Assembly (NCBI GenBank): GCA_000830275.1 | Contig: CP010424.1 | Span: forward strand, 990,001 to 1,022,000 | DNA: 32,000 bases | Direction: 5' to 3' | Source: an archaeon GW2011_AR10 | GTDB taxonomy: Archaea; Iainarchaeota; Iainarchaeia; Iainarchaeales; GW2011-AR10 | In this document: positions 1,045 through 15,670 of the stretch, in pieces | Layout: every line of letters begins with the position of its first letter | Numbering within the stretch: the first letter of the stretch is position 1 | Program-made: the position numbers and the translations under genes | Notes under the pieces: model-generated | Told to the model about the DNA's origin: nothing | Seen by the model: the letters and a program-made list of their open reading frames with translations, nothing else | Database searches by the model: none

Positions 1045-1212
1045 GGGAAGGTAGCTCAGCCTGGGAGAGCACATGACCGGCACAAGCTTGCCTGTTAGTG
1101 ACTTGTTTTGCCAGTGTGTAGCTGAAGATGGGGCAACATTGTTTTGTTGTTTTAATCTTCGTTGCTCTCAGCGGTGACCATGGTGTCGCGGGTTCAAATC
1201 CCGCTCTTCCCA
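1045..1212 (+). tRNA. tRNA-Phe(GAA) with two introns. Exons 1045-1075, 1121-1127 and 1177-1212; introns 1076-1120 (Sprinzl 30/31) and 1128-1176 (37/38)
   Basis: Acceptor GGGAAGG pairs with TCTTCCC (one G-U) and the discriminator is A. D arm is GCTC-AGCCTGGGA-GAGC. T arm is GCGGG-TTCAAAT-CCCGC. Joining the three exons gives anticodon stem CATGG/CCATG and the classical Phe loop CTGAAGA, for 74 nt with no encoded CCA. Both introns fold into BHB-like motifs with splice sites 2 nt into 3-nt bulges. Confidence 0.85.
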
Positions 1213-1231
1213 TTAACTGTCCTCATCTGAA

Positions 1232-1797
1232 TTACTTGGAGGGAACTTTTCCGCGGAGCTTGTTTGAAAAGAATGCTTTGCTGTATTTCCAGTAAGCTTT
1301 GGCTTTATTTTTTTTCCAGAGTTCGTAGAATTTCCTGTACTCGTCGTATACTTCCTGAGTTGTTGGGGGAAATTTTTTTAGTGTGTAATGAATTCCAATA
1401 AGACCGGGCCCTAACTTATCATATATTCCTTTAATGTCTTTTGGCAGGGCATCATATTCTTCTCTTGCCAAAGGCCTAATTCCCACTAAAGCAAGTCGCC
1501 TTTCAAAAAAGAAATAATTTGGGGGAGTTCATCAATGTGTGTTCTCCGTAAAAACCTTGCAAACTTATTAATCACCCTTGGATCTTGGCTCTTGATTTCA
1601 AATTTCTGGGTTATTGAAGTAGTTGTTGGGTATAAGTTCCCTCTTTCTTCCGCAGCTCCTCTTTTCATTGTCCTAATTTTGGTAATTGTAATAGGTAAAC
1701 CGCCTTTTCCAACTCTTTCACCGCGATGAAAAAGAAATGTGTCCTTGCGCTTCGGCATTAAGAAAGAACAGGGTTTTGAAGAATATAATGATTGCAC
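1232..1797 (-). pseudogene. Decayed bacterial-type sugar transferase (polyprenyl-phosphate hexose-1-P transferase, Bac_transf/PglC-like), N-terminally truncated and frameshifted
   Basis: ORF 1486-1797 carries GERVGKGGLPITITKIRTM...DPRVINKFARFLRRTHIDELPQIISFLKGDLL and stops at TAG. The family motif continues in the -1 frame as (L)VGIRPLAREEY...GPGLIG (ORF 1232-1486). The N-terminal membrane re-entrant helix that normally precedes the GKxGxPFxxxKFRTM motif is absent, leaving only about 20 aa upstream. Confidence 0.65.
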
Positions 1798-1814
1798 ACT
1801 CCATTAAAACAAAT

Positions 1815-1824
1815 TTTTAAATAG
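1815..1824 (+). promoter_or_regulatory. Candidate archaeal TATA box for tRNA-Lys
   Basis: TTTTTAAATA is centred about 31 nt upstream of the tRNA 5' end at 1851. Confidence 0.35.
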
Positions 1825-1850
1825 GTTTGAATACATTGTTTTACTATAAT

Positions 1851-1981
1851 GGGCCCATAGCTCAGTCTGGTAGAGCACTTGATTTTTCGAAGCTTTTTAG
1901 GCTTGGAAGAGGTGCGGCTCTTAAACGCTTTCCAGAAGTAGGGTGACCAAGGTGTCGAGGGTTCGAATCCCTCTGGGCTCG
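1851..1981 (+). tRNA. tRNA-Lys(CUU) with two introns. Exons 1851-1881, 1917-1923 and 1946-1981; introns 1882-1916 (30/31) and 1924-1945 (37/38)
   Basis: Acceptor GGGCCCA pairs with TGGGCTC (G2-U71) and the discriminator is G. D arm is GCTC-AGTCTGGTA-GAGC. T arm is GAGGG-TTCGAAT-CCCTC. The spliced product has stem CTTGG/CCAAG and loop CTCTTAA, and reads like typical archaeal tRNA-Lys (GGGCCC.TAGCTCAGTCTGGTAGAGC....GGCTCTTAACC...GTCGAGGGTTCGAATCCCT). All four splice sites lie in 3-nt bulges flanking 4-bp helices. Confidence 0.88.
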
Positions 1982-2659: not shown

Positions 2660-3664
2660 GTGGGAACTGTAATGCAGGGCGCAGTCAACGCGACAAAGTG
2701 TGTTTCTTTGCGCAGAAACGAGCCAGTGCTGATTTTAGCAGAAAAGGCAAACATCAGGGTTGGGGATGCGCTGAGAAGAGCCTGTGAGAAAAAAACCAAG
2801 CGCATTGATTTTTTTGTTATGGAGCAGTTTGGAAAGCGCCCTCTGCGTTTTTTGCCTGAAGAGCTAAGAGAGGCAGCAAAGAGATGCAAAGTTGCTTTTT
2901 CAACTGTTGGGTCATCCAGGAAAGGAAAACTAAATGAGCGCTTTACTGTAAGGAAGCCGTTGACCGATCTTTTGATGAAACATAATGTCCGTTTTGCTGC
3001 AATGGTCGGGGTTGATGAGGAGTGCATGAAGCAGGGAATGTGCGTTGATTACAAGAAAATTCAGCTGGCTTGCAAGGCGCTTTACAGCGTAGTGAAGAAT
3101 GCAAAGCAAATCACTGTAAGCAGCCCGCATGGAACAGCATTGGTTGTGGATTTTTCTCCGAAGCTGAAGTGGCTTGTGGCAGACGGAAACATTGAGCCAG
3201 GCACTTGGAGTAATCTTCCTGATGGTGAAGTGTTTACTTGCCCGGCAAATGTGAATGGCATTGCAGTAATCAATGGCTCTTTGGGGGATGTTTTTTCCCG
3301 CAAGTACAAGTCCTTGGAGAAAACCCCTGTGCGCTGGCACATTGTTGATTCAAGGATTGTTGCAGTGGAATGCCATCAGAATAGAAAGCTTGAGGCTGAG
3401 TTCAAGAGGTACATAAAGCTTGACCGCAATTCCAACAGAATAGGGGAATTTGCGGTGGGCGCAAACTATGGGGTAAAAAAAATTATTGGCAACCTGTTGC
3501 AGGATGAAAAAATTGTTGGGGTTCACATGGCTGCAGGCTATCCCTACCCTGAACTAACTGGCGCGAAGTGGAACAGCAAGGTTCACTGTGATGGGGTAAT
3601 TACAAAACCCACTGTTTTTGTTGACGGAATGCTTTTGATGGATAACGGCAAATTCGTTTTTTAG
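2660..3664 (+). CDS. M29-family (AmpS/PepS/aminopeptidase T-like) aminopeptidase
   Basis: The C-terminal half carries GEFAVGANYGV...GNLLQDEKIVGVHMAAGYPY...VHCDGVI, matching the metal-binding region of thermophilic M29 aminopeptidases as I remember it. The start is uncertain (GTG 2660 or ATG 2672). Confidence 0.55.
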   Translation: MGTVMQGAVNATKCVSLRRNEPVLILAEKANIRVGDALRRACEKKTKRIDFFVMEQFGKRPLRFLPEELREAAKRCKVAFSTVGSSRKGKLNERFTVRKPLTDLLMKHNVRFAAMVGVDEECMKQGMCVDYKKIQLACKALYSVVKNAKQITVSSPHGTALVVDFSPKLKWLVADGNIEPGTWSNLPDGEVFTCPANVNGIAVINGSLGDVFSRKYKSLEKTPVRWHIVDSRIVAVECHQNRKLEAEFKRYIKLDRNSNRIGEFAVGANYGVKKIIGNLLQDEKIVGVHMAAGYPYPELTGAKWNSKVHCDGVITKPTVFVDGMLLMDNGKFVF

Positions 3665-3700
3665 TGGGTTTTAAAAGGTTTTAGCCTTAGTCTTTTGTGA

Positions 3701-5851
3701 GTGGGAAGCTTGGTTAAGCGTTTTTTGTTTGCTTTTTTTGTACTGCTTTTAGCTGCCGTCGTTTTTGGTTTGGATGGTCCAACGATTTCAAGTTCAACCC
3801 ATCCTGATTCAGGGCTTTGGTATAAGGAAACCAGGCCTGCTTTTGAGTGGGAGGTGCTTGATGGGGCAACCGCGCACAGCTATGCTTTGGGCATGGAGGC
3901 TGAAACCGCGCCTGATGAAATTTCGGAAGGAATCGGAAATTCTTTTCGTGCCCCCCCAAAAATTGATGGTCTTTGGTTTTTTCATGTTCGCTCTAAGGTC
4001 GGGGGCCAGTGGACTGATGCAAGTCACTACTCGCTGAAAATTGACCACACTGCCCCGATGTCCCCTCAAAATGTTGAAGCAACTCCAACTGATGACGGAA
4101 ACATAAGAGTTTCTTGGGATGCTGCCTTTGATGAGAGTTCTGGTGTTGACCACTATGTTTTGTTCAGGGCATTTCAGAAAGACTTTGACATCCGCGATCC
4201 AGCCACGGTTGTGCTGTCAGACAACATTGTTGGAACAAGCTTTGTTGAAGAGGAATTGGTTGAGGGCAGAACCTACCATTACAGGGTGCGGGCAGTTGAC
4301 AAGGCAGATAACTTGGGGGGGATTTCAAAGTCTGTTTTCACTAAGCCCAAGTCCTTTTGTGACCTGGAAATTTCTTTCACTCCGTCATTAGAGCAGGAAA
4401 CTCTTTCAATTAGTGTGGAGTCTCAGGGCGGAGAACTCTATCATGCAAATTTTTTCGTGACTGTGCCTGGCAAAGAACGTGAAATGATTGCAGAAAACAT
4501 TACTTATGCAAGCCTTATTGCAAGAGAAGTTGACTTGTTAGGGGTTGAGGATGGCAACATATTGTTTGAGCTTGAAGCGGAAGACAATGATGTTGATGAC
4601 TGCAGCATTCAATTCACTTATTTTTTGGACAGGGTTGGCCCTAGTGGCGGCTGGCTTTCTCCGCCAGAAAACTTGAAGCTGTTAGATGTTGTTGAGTTGA
4701 AGGTGGAAGCAGTTGATTCTGGTATTAATCCTTCAGGCATTAAATCAGTTGAGTTTCTTTACCGAGAAGATGTAGATGCTTCAATTGGTTTTGCAGAGCG
4801 GGTTTCTGAGCGGGAGTTTTCCTTGGACTGGAACACGCTTAGTGCACCAAACGGCCGTTATGCCGTGATTGCAAGAATCCTTGATTTTGGTGGCAACAAT
4901 GTGGAGTTGTCGCGCTCAGTTTCAGTTGAGAACACTGCTTTGCTTTTAAGCGAAATATCAGGCCTGCTCTCTCAGGCAGGTGAAGAAAAATCGAAAGCCG
5001 AGAAACTCAAGGGCACTTTAATTGCAGCTGGCCTGCAGGATGCAGAGTTTTTTTCTATTTTAGGGCAGGCTGATGGAAATTATGCCAAGGCATCTGACCT
5101 TCTTGAAAGGCAGGTTTTCCTTGAAACTGCATTGGTGCATGCATTGAATGCAAAAGAGCTTTTCGAGCAAGCCGCTGAATCAGTTTCAGTTGAGCGCTAT
5201 AATAACCTTTACGTGGTGTTTGAGCCTAACTCTGAAGCTGAAGCTTTCAGAGAGGCTGGCCTCAAGGAAGAACTTGTGGGGGAAGCTGCTTCAAATCTGC
5301 AGGAGCTATCGGTTTCAAGGCGCATTGAAGTGAATAAAATCAGCGATTCTAATGGGGTGTTCTATGTTGCTGTTATACTAATTTCTTTTCGCGATGTCAA
5401 TGAGTCAACGCCTGTTCAGATAGTTGAGGTTATCCCGAAAACAGTTGCAGCTAATGCTTCAGATATTATTTCTTCAACAGATTTTGAGGTATTTAATGCA
5501 GATCCAGTAATTAAATTTGATGCAGATGTTATGGAAACCAACTATATTTCTTACGCTCTCGCCAAGCGCTTTTCAAAAGAGGAAGCAGATGCATTTGCTG
5601 AAAGCAATCCCAATAAAGAGTTTTTGGTGCCGCCAATCGTTTTAGGCTCTTCAGCTAGCGTGAACAGCGGAATCATAGTTGAAAGATTTGATACAGAGAA
5701 GCTATTTGGGGGGGTTTCCTCTTTTTTCTCTTCACAGGATGCATGGGTTTTTGTGCTGGCGGGCGTGCTTGTTGTGCTGTTCCTGTTTTTAGTGATTGTG
5801 GTGCTGGCAGTTTCAATCATAATCTTTATTCTGGTTAAGAGGAGGAGGTAG
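3701..5851 (+). CDS. Large surface protein with N-terminal signal/anchor, an STHPD...WY module, an FN3-like domain and a C-terminal TM anchor
   Basis: N-terminal hydrophobic segment is FLFAFFVLLLAAVVFG. The module reads SSTHPDSGLWYKETRPAFEWE...DGLWFFHVRSKVGGQWTD...IDHTAP. The FN3-like stretch reads PQNVEATPTDDGNIRVSWDAA...VDHYVLFRA...RTYHYRVRAVDKADN. The C-terminal TM is VFVLAGVLVVLFLFLVIVVLAVSIIIFILV followed by KRRR. Confidence 0.7.
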   Translation: MGSLVKRFLFAFFVLLLAAVVFGLDGPTISSSTHPDSGLWYKETRPAFEWEVLDGATAHSYALGMEAETAPDEISEGIGNSFRAPPKIDGLWFFHVRSKVGGQWTDASHYSLKIDHTAPMSPQNVEATPTDDGNIRVSWDAAFDESSGVDHYVLFRAFQKDFDIRDPATVVLSDNIVGTSFVEEELVEGRTYHYRVRAVDKADNLGGISKSVFTKPKSFCDLEISFTPSLEQETLSISVESQGGELYHANFFVTVPGKEREMIAENITYASLIAREVDLLGVEDGNILFELEAEDNDVDDCSIQFTYFLDRVGPSGGWLSPPENLKLLDVVELKVEAVDSGINPSGIKSVEFLYREDVDASIGFAERVSEREFSLDWNTLSAPNGRYAVIARILDFGGNNVELSRSVSVENTALLLSEISGLLSQAGEEKSKAEKLKGTLIAAGLQDAEFFSILGQADGNYAKASDLLERQVFLETALVHALNAKELFEQAAESVSVERYNNLYVVFEPNSEAEAFREAGLKEELVGEAASNLQELSVSRRIEVNKISDSNGVFYVAVILISFRDVNESTPVQIVEVIPKTVAANASDIISSTDFEVFNADPVIKFDADVMETNYISYALAKRFSKEEADAFAESNPNKEFLVPPIVLGSSASVNSGIIVERFDTEKLFGGVSSFFSSQDAWVFVLAGVLVVLFLFLVIVVLAVSIIIFILVKRRR

Positions 5852-7609: not shown

Positions 7610-8667
7610 CGAAATTGGAGCAGTTTCTTAAGCGCAGTGCAGTAGAAATCAACAAAGAGCTTGAACGTTTTTTTCCAAGGAAAATTTCAAGGCAGTGGAT
7701 GAAAGAAAATGTTTCTGCAGAGGAATTCGAGTTTGACCTCGAAACTTACCAGAAAGCGGTTGTAGAGCCTGTGTGGGATTTTTTGGATAGGGGCGGGAAG
7801 CGCTGGAGGCCTTCCCTGATGCTGTTATGCTGTGAGGCAGTTGGCGGCAACAGAAAGAAAGCATTGCCTTTTGTTGTTTTCCCGGAGCTGCTTCACACTG
7901 GCTCGATAATTGTTGACGATGTTGAAGATAATTCGAGTGTGAGGCGCGGCAGGCCCGCAATGCACAAGCTTTTCGGCGTTGACATAGCAGTAAACAATGG
8001 CAATCTCCTTTACTTCCTGCCTGCCTTTCTGCTTTACTCGAACAAGTTTAGGCTGCCTTCTGGGCTGAAGGCAAAAATTTATGATGTTTGCTTGGAGGAA
8101 ATGGTCCGGCTTTCTTTTGGTCAGGCCACTGATATCTACTGGCATCAGGGCAAAAGAACCGCTGTTTCAGAGAAGCAATACTTGCAGATGTGCACTTTTA
8201 AAACAGGCAGCCTTGCAAGGCTTTCGGCAAAACTTGGTGTCATTCTTGGCGGCGGAAGCAGGAAACAAACCGAAAAACTAGGCAACTTTGCGGCAGCAAT
8301 CGGTGTTGCCTTCCAGATAAGGGATGATGTGTTAAACATTTCCAGCTCAGAGCACATAGGCAAGGATTTTGGCGATGACATACTGGAAGGAAAGCGCTCC
8401 CTGATAATTCTACGGACTTTGAAGAAGGCGGCCAAGCATGAGAGGAATCGCTTGCTGGCAATACTTGGTTATGCCACTGGCAGTAAACAGGAAGTAGCTG
8501 AGGCGCTGAAGATAATAAAAAAGTATGATGGCATAGAGTTTTCAAAGGCAAAGGCAAAAGAGCTTGTTGAAAAGAGCTGGAAGGAAGCTGAAGCCTGCAT
8601 CACTGAAAGCAGTGCAAAGTCTTTGCTGAGGGAATTTGCAAATTATGTTGTTGAGAGGCAGTCTTAG
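7606..8667 (+). CDS. idsA: Short-chain trans-prenyl diphosphate synthase (geranylgeranyl diphosphate synthase type)
   Basis: First Asp-rich motif is LHTGSIIVDDVEDNSSVRRGRPAMH. The second is FQIRDDVLN, with KDFGDDILEGKRSL. The start overlaps the lysK stop by 4 nt. Confidence 0.85.
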   Translation: MTKLEQFLKRSAVEINKELERFFPRKISRQWMKENVSAEEFEFDLETYQKAVVEPVWDFLDRGGKRWRPSLMLLCCEAVGGNRKKALPFVVFPELLHTGSIIVDDVEDNSSVRRGRPAMHKLFGVDIAVNNGNLLYFLPAFLLYSNKFRLPSGLKAKIYDVCLEEMVRLSFGQATDIYWHQGKRTAVSEKQYLQMCTFKTGSLARLSAKLGVILGGGSRKQTEKLGNFAAAIGVAFQIRDDVLNISSSEHIGKDFGDDILEGKRSLIILRTLKKAAKHERNRLLAILGYATGSKQEVAEALKIIKKYDGIEFSKAKAKELVEKSWKEAEACITESSAKSLLREFANYVVERQS

Positions 8668-13786: not shown

Positions 13787-15670
13787 TCAGCTTCTTTCAA
13801 CAGATTTTACTTCCTCCATTTTGGAGATTCCTTCAATTATTTTGTCTAGTTTACTAAGGTTGCGCAGTTTGATTTCAAAGACGCAGTTGAACATGTTGGT
13901 TTGAGTTGTTTTGACATTGGCTGAAACAATGTTTGCCTTCTGAGATGAAATAATGTTCAGTATGTCCTTCAGCAACCCAACCCTGTCTTTGCCTGTAACC
14001 TTCAACTCAACAATGTAGTCCGTACCCTGCTTGTGTTCCCATTCAACGTTTATCAGTTTTTCCGCAGGAATGCTATTGAGTTGTAGGCAGGACTTTCTGT
14101 GGACTGAGATTTTTCTCTTGGTGGTCTTAAAGCCAACGATTTCCTCCCCAAGAAGGGGGTTACAGCAATTTGCTATCCTTATCCTCTTGTCGCTTGTTTT
14201 CACTACCTGTTTTCTCAGCGGCTTGGCAGCGGTTTTCTTGGCTTGCTTTATGTTCAAGCGCTGCTTTATCTTGGCTTTTGCTTTGGATGTCTTTACAAAG
14301 CCAAGCCACTGTGTTCTTGGTTTCTGCTGCTGCGATGTGAATATTTGGACGGTGTCGCCATTTTTCAGTTCAAAGTTCAGTGGCACTGGCTTGCCGTTAA
14401 CAACTGCTCTAATGCATTTAAAACCCAGCTCAGTGTGAACTGCAAACGCAAAATCGAGCACAGTGGCCTTTTCTGGCAGCTCAATGACATCCCCCTTCGG
14501 GGTCAAAGCATAAATTGTGTTCTCAAACAGCTCAAGATTTTTCAGTTCAGAGCCTGCTCCAGGAGTCTGCCTCTGCCAGTCAATCAACTGCTTTAGCCAA
14601 GCCAGCTTTTTATCAAATTTTTCCTCTTTCTCTATTCCCTTGTAAAGCCAGTGGCCTGCAACCCCTATCTCTGCCGCATCGTTCATTTTATTTGTTCTGA
14701 TCTGGATTTCAAGTGGCATTCCGCCTGGCCCGATAACTGTTGTGTGCAGCGACTGATAGCCGTTTGGCTTTGGCTTTACAATGTAGTCGTCAAATTCTCC
14801 TGGAATAGGTTTCCAAAGGGATTGAACGATGCTTAAAACCTCGTAGCAGTCCTTAACTGTTTCGGTTATAACCCTTAGGGCAACGATGTCATAGATCTCT
14901 TCAAAGCTTTTATTTCTTGAAATCATTTTTCGGTAAATGCTGCTGATGGGCTTTGCTCTTCCAATAACTTCGATTAATGACTTGGTTTTCTGCAGTTCCT
15001 TCTCCAGAATTTTTCTCATCTTTTCTATTTCAGTTTTTCTTTCGCGCTCTTTTTTCTCTATTTTGCTAGAGATTTCCCTGAAAATTTCCGGTTTCCTGTA
15101 TTTTAGGACAAGATTATCAATGCTGGACTTAAGCGGGTAAAGGCCGACTTTTTCAGTGAAAGGAGAAATTATTTGCTCGGCTTCAATTACGCGCAATTCC
15201 TGCACCTCTGCCGGGTCATCACCCATTCCTTTTAGGTCGTCAATCCTTTCAGCTATTACGATTAGGATTAACTTAGGGTCCTTTGCTGTGGCATAAAAAA
15301 TTTTTTTGGCTGCATCTATTTTTTCTATTCTTGCCTGGTCTTTTGGCACTAAAATCCTTTCAGCGTTTCCGGCACTTACAACTAGTCCGGCAACTTCTTC
15401 GCCGAATTCTTTTTCTAGGCTCTGTTCATCGGCACCAAAGCGGACTGCATTATGTAGAAGCCCCGCAGTTATTACTTCCGGGCTTGCATGCATTTCTGTC
15501 AGGATTTTTGCAGTGCCGATATTGTGCAGCAGCGACTTTTTTTCTGAACTGCTTTTTTCCAAGACCCCTTCAAGATACGCTGCGGCCTTTCTAATTGTTC
15601 GCTCCTCTAGTTCTATTCTGTTTTCTTTAACTTTCCTGATTAAACCGTTTAGCTCTCGATCTTCTTTCAT
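13787..15670 (-). CDS. relA: Long RelA/SpoT homologue ((p)ppGpp synthetase) with degenerate hydrolase domain. Domain order: HD-like, synthetase, TGS, Cys-rich zinc-finger domain, ACT
   Basis: Synthetase motifs are YRKMISRNKSFEEIYDIVALRVI, KPNGYQSLHTTV and EIQIRTNKMNDAAEIGVAGHWLYK. TGS is IYALTPKGDVIELPEKATVLDFAFAVH...NGDTVQI. The Cys-rich domain is ANCCNPLLGEEIVGF...SVHRKSC. ACT is VELKVTGKDRVGLLKDILNII. The N-terminal HD region reads GLLHNAVRFG where canonical enzymes have LLHDvvEDT. Confidence 0.9.
   Translation of the reverse strand: MKEDRELNGLIRKVKENRIELEERTIRKAAAYLEGVLEKSSSEKKSLLHNIGTAKILTEMHASPEVITAGLLHNAVRFGADEQSLEKEFGEEVAGLVVSAGNAERILVPKDQARIEKIDAAKKIFYATAKDPKLILIVIAERIDDLKGMGDDPAEVQELRVIEAEQIISPFTEKVGLYPLKSSIDNLVLKYRKPEIFREISSKIEKKERERKTEIEKMRKILEKELQKTKSLIEVIGRAKPISSIYRKMISRNKSFEEIYDIVALRVITETVKDCYEVLSIVQSLWKPIPGEFDDYIVKPKPNGYQSLHTTVIGPGGMPLEIQIRTNKMNDAAEIGVAGHWLYKGIEKEEKFDKKLAWLKQLIDWQRQTPGAGSELKNLELFENTIYALTPKGDVIELPEKATVLDFAFAVHTELGFKCIRAVVNGKPVPLNFELKNGDTVQIFTSQQQKPRTQWLGFVKTSKAKAKIKQRLNIKQAKKTAAKPLRKQVVKTSDKRIRIANCCNPLLGEEIVGFKTTKRKISVHRKSCLQLNSIPAEKLINVEWEHKQGTDYIVELKVTGKDRVGLLKDILNIISSQKANIVSANVKTTQTNMFNCVFEIKLRNLSKLDKIIEGISKMEEVKSVERS

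Follow-up and report, generated by a model that had tools for sequence, protein, structure and literature searches.

Two-intron tRNA-Phe(GAA) and tRNA-Lys(CUU) genes with anticodon-bearing micro-exons in the archaeon GW2011_AR10

A 32,000-nt stretch of the genome of the archaeon GW2011_AR10 (GenBank assembly GCA_000830275.1, contig CP010424.1, positions 990,001 to 1,022,000; hereafter the window) contains genes for tRNA-Phe(GAA) and tRNA-Lys(CUU). The present analysis confirms that both are real tRNA genes, each with two introns, one at the non-canonical tRNA position 30/31, within the 5' strand of the anticodon stem, and one at the canonical position 37/38, which leave between them a 7-nt micro-exon carrying the whole anticodon. 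It is very likely that the two genes are functional, with introns removed by protein enzymes at bulge-helix-bulge (BHB) motifs. Splicing is probably stepwise because the two motifs of a gene compete for the same four nucleotides.

Exon structure and splice sites

Both regions gave full-length matches to Rfam RF00005, with scores of 40.6 bits for tRNA-Phe (1045-1212) and 50.3 bits for tRNA-Lys (1851-1981). The sole disruption in each is an insert in the anticodon arm, of 103 nt and 60 nt respectively. Joining 1045-1075, 1121-1127 and 1177-1212 yields a 74-nt product that ARAGORN recognises as tRNA-Phe(GAA), while 1851-1881, 1917-1923 and 1946-1981 join into a 74-nt tRNA-Lys(CUU). The spliced Phe product has a perfect 5-bp anticodon stem (CATGG/CCATG) and the loop CTGAAGA; spliced Lys likewise has a perfect 5-bp stem (CTTGG/CCAAG) and the loop CTCTTAA. 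The initial annotation, made from the sequence alone, had described these stems and loops and the three-exon structure. Its coordinates are exact, and orthologues, compensatory changes and covariation lend the structure independent support. The exons of both genes are collinear and lie on one strand. The features are as follows (L numbers denote loci on related contigs, introduced below).

1010-1015, + strand: TATA-like box TTTAAA, read from the sequence, about 30-35 nt upstream of tRNA-Phe
1045-1212, + strand: tRNA-Phe(GAA) gene, 168 nt, three exons and two introns (Rfam; ARAGORN on the spliced product)
1045-1075, + strand: Phe exon 1, tRNA positions 1-30; 31/31 identical in L144
1076-1120, + strand: Phe intron 1, 45 nt, position 30/31; central helix 1070-1073 with 1115-1118
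1121-1127, + strand: Phe micro-exon GCTGAAG, positions 31-37, anticodon GAA; 7/7 identical in L144
1128-1176, + strand: Phe intron 2, 49 nt, canonical position 37/38, relaxed BHB; 80% identity with the L144 intron
1177-1212, + strand: Phe exon 3, positions 38-73, CCA not encoded; 36/36 identical in L144
1814-1823, + strand: TATA-like box TTTTTAAATA, read from the sequence, about 28-37 nt upstream of tRNA-Lys
1851-1981, + strand: tRNA-Lys(CUU) gene, 131 nt, three exons and two introns (Rfam; ARAGORN on the spliced product)
1851-1881, + strand: Lys exon 1, positions 1-30 (Rfam, ARAGORN)
1882-1916, + strand: Lys intron 1, 35 nt, position 30/31, strict hBHBh' motif (geometry, orthologues, covariation)
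1917-1923, + strand: Lys micro-exon GCTCTTA, positions 31-37, anticodon CTT; identical in L009, L043 and L127
1924-1945, + strand: Lys intron 2, 22 nt, canonical position 37/38; strict BHB after removal of intron 1
1946-1981, + strand: Lys exon 3, positions 38-73, CCA not encoded (Rfam, ARAGORN)

Genes of this structure escape standard annotation. With default settings, ARAGORN called no tRNA anywhere in the window, and in single-intron mode it returned poorly folded Ala(TGC) and Glu(TTC) calls in place of Phe and Lys. The expectation that a single-intron gene finder would miss or misassign these genes is thereby borne out. A permissive Rfam scan of the window found no further credible RNA. 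The tRNA-Phe gene of locus L144 (939-1101) went unreported by an Rfam scan at the gathering threshold, despite exons identical to those of the window gene that scores 40.6 bits. Detection of two-intron tRNA genes is therefore fragile even for covariance models.

The archaeal splicing endonuclease EndA cleaves after the second base of each 3-nt bulge in a BHB motif, in which the two bulges are separated by a 4-bp helix. The initial annotation assigned such a motif to all four junctions. The geometry is present at each of them, and it conforms to the strict 3-4-3 arrangement at three, Phe intron 2 being the exception. In the descriptions that follow, a caret marks the splice site. Phe intron 1 has a fully paired central helix (CACA/TGTG, 4/4), bulges TG^A and TA^G, and a 2-bp outer helix (AG/CT). 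Its inner helix, previously given as CCGGCA/TGCCAG, does form, but with a C.A mismatch at the second pair (C-G, C.A, then GGCA/TGCC). Lys intron 1 has the central helix CACT/GGTG (4/4), bulges TG^A and CG^G, an 8-bp inner helix, and a 4-bp outer helix between AGAG (1872-1875) and CTCT (1918-1921). The outer helix of the 30/31 motif (AGAG/CTCT in Lys, AG/CT in Phe) had been overlooked in the initial annotation.

At 37/38, Lys intron 2 has the central helix CTCT/AGGG (4/4), bulges TA^A and TG^A, a 2-bp inner helix, and an outer helix of 5 bp once intron 1 is removed. The outer helix of Phe intron 2 likewise reaches 5 bp once intron 1 is removed, and its inner helix is TGGGG/TCTCA. The previously proposed register of its central helix, CTGA/GCGG with bulges AG^A and TG^A, holds at three of four pairs (A.G mismatch). 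An alternative that had not been mentioned pairs CTGA with TCAG (1168-1171) through four Watson-Crick pairs and leaves a 6-nt 3' bulge. The motif is relaxed in either register.

Three of the four introns have splice sites that can be slid by one base without changing the product. Every slid version loses the motif, so 30/31 and 37/38 are the supported positions. In a shuffle test that held the junctions fixed, permuted the intron interiors and took the central and inner helices as its statistic, the p values were ~0.004 (Phe intron 1), ~0.003 (Phe intron 2), <5e-5 (Lys intron 1) and ~0.004 (Lys intron 2). The Phe region yielded 13 strict candidates in a free scan for BHB-like motifs, the Lys region 8. 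Since such motifs are common by chance, the signal lies in the coincidence of BHB geometry with the junctions demanded by the tRNA fold.

Two other kinds of gene structure were considered and rejected. A split or permuted tRNA gene does not fit the arrangement of all three exons in order within 168 nt (Phe) and 131 nt (Lys). Self-splicing group I or group II introns were discounted as the introns are only 22-49 nt long and gave no Rfam intron-family matches even at E <= 1.

Order of splicing

Nucleotides 32-35 of the micro-exon take part in two helices. They form the outer helix of the 30/31 motif with nt 21-24 of the D arm, and they form the central helix of the 37/38 motif. As both motifs need these four nucleotides, the two are mutually exclusive. 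The central helix of the 30/31 motif also uses nt 25-28, which belong to the D stem and the anticodon stem, making this motif incompatible with the cloverleaf.

We propose the following pathway. Each tRNA gene would be transcribed from its own TATA-like promoter. EndA would then cut at the BHB bulges and an RtcB-type ligase would join the exons, as is established for these enzyme families. Processing would take two rounds of cutting and ligation, with the RNA refolding in between and one motif being formed at a time. Intron 1 is most likely removed first, judging from structure and energies: its motif (BHB1) is complete in the primary transcript, and the 37/38 motif (BHB2) acquires the anticodon stem as its 5-bp outer helix only after intron 1 is lost. 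Such stepwise processing would prevent release of the 7-nt micro-exon as a free oligonucleotide.

Constrained folding favours this order. For the unspliced Lys precursor, the BHB1 conformer has an energy of -43.2 kcal/mol, the minimum free energy (MFE) is -46.5 kcal/mol, and the cloverleaf with BHB2 has one of -20.2 kcal/mol. After removal of intron 1, the BHB2-constrained fold equals the MFE, at -6.8 kcal/mol. Before splicing, the outer helix of the 37/38 motif amounts to a single contiguous pair. The initial annotation had stated that the outer helix at 37/38 can form only across intron 1, and had suggested either an ordered pathway or one composite recognition structure. An ordered pathway is plausible; for archaeal introns that lie close together, the principle has been recognised before (PMC8450103).

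The same exons could instead be produced with no obligatory order or conformational gating, with EndA cutting any motif that has formed, in either sequence or the two together, and the anticodon stem, closed across intron 1 as a three-way junction, holding the micro-exon in place. Removing intron 2 in silico leaves the 30/31 BHB unchanged, so the reverse order is sterically possible, and EndA is active on minimal BHB substrates that lack a tRNA body (PMC3241643). Against this, nt 32-35 cannot serve two fully formed motifs together, and the cloverleaf with BHB2 is ~23 kcal/mol less stable than BHB1 by what is a crude energy model. We regard processing in free order as possible, if rather unlikely.

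The initial annotation also called for a splicing endonuclease of broad specificity. As three of the four motifs are strict, such an enzyme would be needed mainly for the non-canonical 30/31 site and the relaxed motif of Phe intron 2. Neither an EndA nor an RtcB gene was found in the window or the comparison loci. A tblastn search for EndA, with a presumed Methanocaldococcus jannaschii sequence as the query, found no match in the 32-kb window or in the 146 comparison loci.

Orthologues, intron turnover and the 30/31 intron

Orthologues came from contigs encoding related peptidases and from one metagenome scan with the shared D-arm pattern. The scan gave at least 120 matches, and the census of gene architectures covers the matches listed. 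The two-intron layout (30/31 and 37/38) occurs on at least five independent contigs, four with Lys(CUU) and one with Phe(GAA). Among the matches listed, the Lys(CUU) genes with both introns are those of L009, L043, L127 and L064; L117 Lys(CUU), L096 Lys(UUU) and L009 Lys(UUU) have the 30/31 intron alone. The Phe(GAA) gene with both introns is that of L144 (939-1101). ARAGORN folded the joined exons of both window genes and of eight related genes into a canonical cloverleaf.

Exons and introns have diverged at different rates. Between the window and L144, the Phe exons are identical at 74/74 positions, while the introns agree at 32/46 (70%) and 39/49 (80%). Comparing exon with intron columns (74/74 vs 71/95) gives a Fisher p of 4e-7. 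The Lys exons are likewise better conserved than the Lys introns (p = 2e-3 to 2e-5). Introns orthologous to Lys intron 1 are found in L009, L043 and L127 (z 8-12), which also share the micro-exon GCTCTTA. In L064 the micro-exon is CCTCTTA and the 3' exon starts AGCAGG, so that the G31-C39 pair has become C31-G39, a compensatory swap bridging the micro-exon and exon 3. Two further anticodon-stem pairs that are T-A in the window have changed on both sides, the Lys pair 28:42 being C-G in L009 and the Phe pair 29:41 being C-G in L001.

The 30/31 motif also shows covariation among nine genes. In their alignment, A1, 88.9% of its cells are paired, compared with 42-56% for slid partners, and its covariation score of 0.498 exceeds those of the slid partners (at most 0.307) and was reached by 0 of 500 shuffles. 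At least three of the four central pairs form in 9/9 intron-bearing genes, and all four in every gene in A1. This helix is 100% paired in A1, where position 28 varies between C-G, U.G and A-U. Changes on both sides were seen at eight pairs of the motif, seven of these being all seven pairs of the inner helix.

Upstream, a GCTTTAAA element lies at the same distance in the L144 Phe orthologue as the TATA-like box does in the window, and L009 has a TTATAAA element at a similar distance from its tRNA. The boxes at 1010-1015 and 1814-1823 may represent the promoters of tRNA-Phe and tRNA-Lys.

Taken together, the orthologues, the exon-biased conservation, the compensatory changes and the covariation weigh against two alternative readings of the loci. 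In the first, they are decaying tRNA pseudogenes with junk insertions, and functional intron-free copies exist elsewhere in the genome. The silence of ARAGORN at both loci would fit, as would the fragments of a sugar-transferase pseudogene lying between the two genes. Decay does not, however, account for Phe exons perfectly conserved beside diverging introns, for compensatory changes that preserve the anticodon stem (including the pair that spans the micro-exon), for insertions located exactly at BHB-excisable sites, for the recurrence of the layout on independent contigs, or for the conserved TATA-like boxes. We consider this explanation highly improbable.

The second, a single long intron per gene with a different anticodon (Ala(TGC), Glu(TTC), or Lys(UUU) via CTTGA-TTTTTCA), is less probable still: although ARAGORN with the -i option yields the Ala and Glu models, and ATTTTTC after position 30 of the Lys gene could serve as a loop containing the anticodon TTT, with TTTT/AGGG as a central helix made up of three G.U pairs and a single U-A pair, these models need irregular or mismatched anticodon stems, an oversized variable arm, or C37 together with an A31.C39 mismatch, while Phe and Lys orthologues with uninterrupted GAA and CTT loops have matching acceptor, D and T arms, and the 7-mers GCTGAAG and GCTCTTA are conserved amid diverging inserts. 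The uninterrupted loop CTGAAGA is present in the Phe genes of L001, L011 and L145, and uninterrupted anticodon arms with the same loops as in the window are found in L001 (Phe), L011, L144 (Lys) and L145.

Several observations nevertheless weigh against reading the two loci as functional genes with protein-spliced introns. The 37/38 motif is only partly conserved, with central pairs at 3/4 in L043, 2/4 in L144 and 1/4 in L127. For Phe intron 2 in the strict register, this is a drop from 3/4 in the window to 2/4 in L144. The 37-nt intron at 37/38 in L127 (Lys(CUU), 8391-8535), with its central helix at 1/4, has no recognisable strict BHB, and either the junction assumed there differs or its recognition is very relaxed. 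Recognition of some introns in this group must be relaxed or unlike the textbook motif. For the Phe introns, folds constrained to the BHB are 6-7 kcal/mol less favourable than the local MFE. Moreover, we infer the junctions, the order of removal and expression alike. As regards the energies, the MFE folds of the mature tRNA sequences are not cloverleaves either, so nearest-neighbour energies are unreliable for tRNA precursors and whole-precursor MFE folding is uninformative; constrained folds and comparative evidence were used in its place.

Among relatives, the same tRNAs carry different sets of introns:

Window (GW2011_AR10): Phe(GAA) with 30/31 and 37/38; Lys(CUU) with 30/31 and 37/38; Lys(UUU) not in the window
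L011 (Candidatus Iainarchaeum metagenome-assembled genome): Phe(GAA), Lys(CUU) and Lys(UUU) all intron-free and clustered
L001 (syntenic, peptidase 73% identical): Phe(GAA) with one 9/10 intron; Lys(CUU) with 37/38 and 42/43; Lys(UUU) intron-free
L144: Phe(GAA) with 30/31 and 37/38; Lys(CUU) intron-free; Lys(UUU) not seen
L145: Phe(GAA) with one D-loop intron at 18/19, strict hBHBh'; Lys(CUU) intron-free; Lys(UUU) not seen

The anticodon arm of the L001 Phe gene (~3631-3738) is intact, and the Lys(CUU) gene of the same locus (5466-5592) has a 5-nt micro-exon, ACCAG, and two BHB motifs that are both 4/4. The L145 Phe gene with the D-loop intron lies at about 716-828. A contig scan with the Lys T-arm and acceptor sequence matched only one genome, the Candidatus Iainarchaeum metagenome-assembled genome in which Lys and Phe are intron-free. 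In addition, the Lys(UUU) gene of L115 has an apparent 37/38 intron and a T-loop intron near 59/60. The differing intron sets indicate that introns have been gained and lost within the time since close relatives diverged, and comparably fast intron turnover is known in the Thermoproteales (PMC4033280, PMC4090602).

That two different tRNAs share the same pair of insertion points had been singled out as noteworthy. The pair is indeed shared, but 37/38 is the canonical site, so its use by both Phe and Lys means little, and 30/31 is a recurrent site in the tRNA-Lys(CUU), tRNA-Lys(UUU) and tRNA-Phe(GAA) genes of this clade. The 5' exons of these genes share GAGCAC(N)TG, and the longer sequence common to Phe and Lys is TAGCTCAG(Y)CTGG(N)AGAGCAC(N)TG. 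Every 30/31 intron terminates in GGTG (or TGTG) followed by two further bases, and the pairing partner of this end is CAC(C/T/A) at positions 25-28. The outer helix of tRNA-Lys pairs AGAG (nt 21-24) with CUCU or CUUU (nt 32-35), a complementarity that is present with or without the intron.

There are also hints of exchange between the two genes. The Phe intron of L144 ends in GGGTGAA, as the Lys introns do, which leaves an A28.G mismatch; the TGTG of GW2011_AR10 restores pairing. The interior of L144 Phe intron 1 resembles that of the window's Lys intron 1 in an AAGCTT...GGCTTG hairpin (z = 4.4; uncorrected p < 0.001, with ~36 comparisons made). A comparison of the window's own Phe and Lys introns revealed no significant similarity. 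These similarities are only suggestive of intron transfer between neighbouring tRNA genes. We tentatively put forward, as a proposal with a lesser chance of being correct, that the 30/31 intron represents a mobile BHB family specific to GAGCAC(N)UG tRNAs (Lys(UUU), Lys(CUU) and Phe(GAA)), which exploits an already existing complementarity of D-arm nt 21-24 and anticodon-loop nt 32-35 for its outer helix and has moved between neighbouring genes. Combined with a canonical intron, it would impose a conformationally gated two-step splicing in which the 7-nt micro-exon is never set free. Should the EndA of Diapherotrites also be of the simple alpha4 type, the clade would constitute a second, independent hot spot of tRNA-intron proliferation outside the Thermoproteales, and one in which ordered archaeal splicing and the gain of introns could be studied in a natural setting.

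Directly upstream of the window tRNA-Phe lies a free-standing open reading frame (ORF) for a double-motif LAGLIDADG protein (PF14528; 315-1001, + strand). Such ORFs also directly precede intron-rich tRNA genes in L001 (4524-5417, before Lys) and L144 (295-924, before Phe). The window ORF gave no informative match among solved structures, and any role for it in intron mobility would be pure speculation.

Known systems and genomic surroundings

Multi-intron tRNA genes are best known from the Thermoproteales (Pyrobaculum, Thermofilum), where one tRNA gene can hold as many as three BHB introns, many positions are used and intron transposition occurs (PMC4033280, PMC4090602, PMC8450103). As in that order, the intron complement of the genes described here varies between close relatives, and similar introns are found in different tRNAs (PMC4033280, PMC4090602, PMC8450103). 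The organisms are otherwise unlike. Thermoproteales are hyperthermophilic crenarchaea with an (alpha-beta)2 EndA bearing the crenarchaeal loop, whereas GW2011_AR10 is a mesophilic member of the DPANN archaea (Diapherotrites) from Rifle groundwater with a genome of ~1.2 Mb. The case for intron transfer in GW2011_AR10, a single interior similarity at z = 4.4, is weak. tRNAscan-SE 2.0 repeats its intron search to accommodate close introns of which one is removed before the second BHB forms (PMC8450103).

The initial annotation regarded multi-intron tRNAs as established mainly for the Thermoproteales and a few other archaea, but they are already known in DPANN. The tRNA-Pro of ARMAN-2 has introns at 53/54 and 59/60 with strict hBHBh' motifs and a 6-nt micro-exon, and the epsilon2 EndA of this organism has been shown to have broad specificity (PMC3239211). 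It resembles GW2011_AR10 in belonging to DPANN and in having two introns a few nucleotides apart that leave a micro-exon. The ARMAN-2 micro-exon lies in the T-loop, however, and that of GW2011_AR10 is nt 31-37 with the whole anticodon. In Methanopyrus kandleri, pre-tRNA-Glu(UUC) has introns at 20b/21 (HBh') and 37/38, the removal of which was demonstrated experimentally, with the mature tRNA seen by RNA-seq (PMC5829648). Here too one intron is non-canonical and one canonical, but the introns are ~17 nt apart, their motifs share no nucleotides, and there is no micro-exon.

Kaneta et al. (2018) reported that Pacearchaeota, Woesearchaeota and other DPANN with an L3-loop alpha4 EndA have markedly more non-canonical and multiple tRNA introns, and noted incomplete predictions of tRNA sets in those organisms (PMC5829648). 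Their genome set is without Diapherotrites or GW2011_AR10, and neither the 30/31 family nor an outer helix between D arm and anticodon loop is described there (PMC5829648). Our literature search found nothing on the tRNA introns of GW2011_AR10, Diapherotrites or Iainarchaeum, the intron position "30/31" itself not being searchable.

The window genes add to the known archaeal multi-intron tRNAs and leave the known picture of splicing unchanged. What is modestly new is the anticodon-bearing micro-exon, the conserved 30/31 intron family and the competition of two motifs for four nucleotides. This competition makes the processing order of multi-intron pre-tRNAs testable in vitro. Together with the window, the related loci provide a comparative series for intron gain and loss outside the Thermoproteales, in which the same syntenic tRNAs have no intron, 30/31 alone, 30/31 with 37/38, 37/38 with 42/43, 9/10, or a D-loop intron. 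In practical terms, a complete DPANN reference genome has Phe(GAA) and Lys(CUU) genes that ARAGORN does not see and that single-intron logic misassigns. Because genes of this structure evade the finders, counts of "missing tRNAs" in DPANN are partly artefacts, as Kaneta et al. suspected.

The genes flanking the tRNA genes are archaeal, among them those for a class I LysRS, a KaiC-type ATPase and a short archaeal TIM. One further gene is listed:

2660-3664: M29 peptidase, 100% identical over 330 residues to AJF60577.1 (archaeon GW2011_AR10), which assigns the window to this archaeon or a near-identical strain; other members of the protein cluster bear the names Candidatus Diapherotrites or Iainarchaeum

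Between the two tRNA genes, on the minus strand (1232-1797), are two abutting short ORFs. The upstream one matches just a portion of the bacterial sugar transferase family Bac_transf (profile positions 32-102 of 179), and this Bac_transf-like sequence is probably a broken gene. A 118-nt tandem duplication at 1978-2161 on the plus strand begins within the final four bases of tRNA-Lys, and its copies (1978-2043 and 2096-2161) share 76% identity. The duplication is made up of short hairpins (AAACGGAAAGGTCCGTTT, GTGCCATCTTCGATGGCAC and variants) and could be a duplicated trailer or terminator, or the remnant of an integration site.

Further along the window, 13787-15670 on the minus strand encodes a 627-aa long RelA/SpoT homologue (RSH) with HD, RelA_SpoT, TGS and ACT domains. 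Long RSH enzymes are uncommon in archaea, which suggests that this gene may be a bacterial acquisition.

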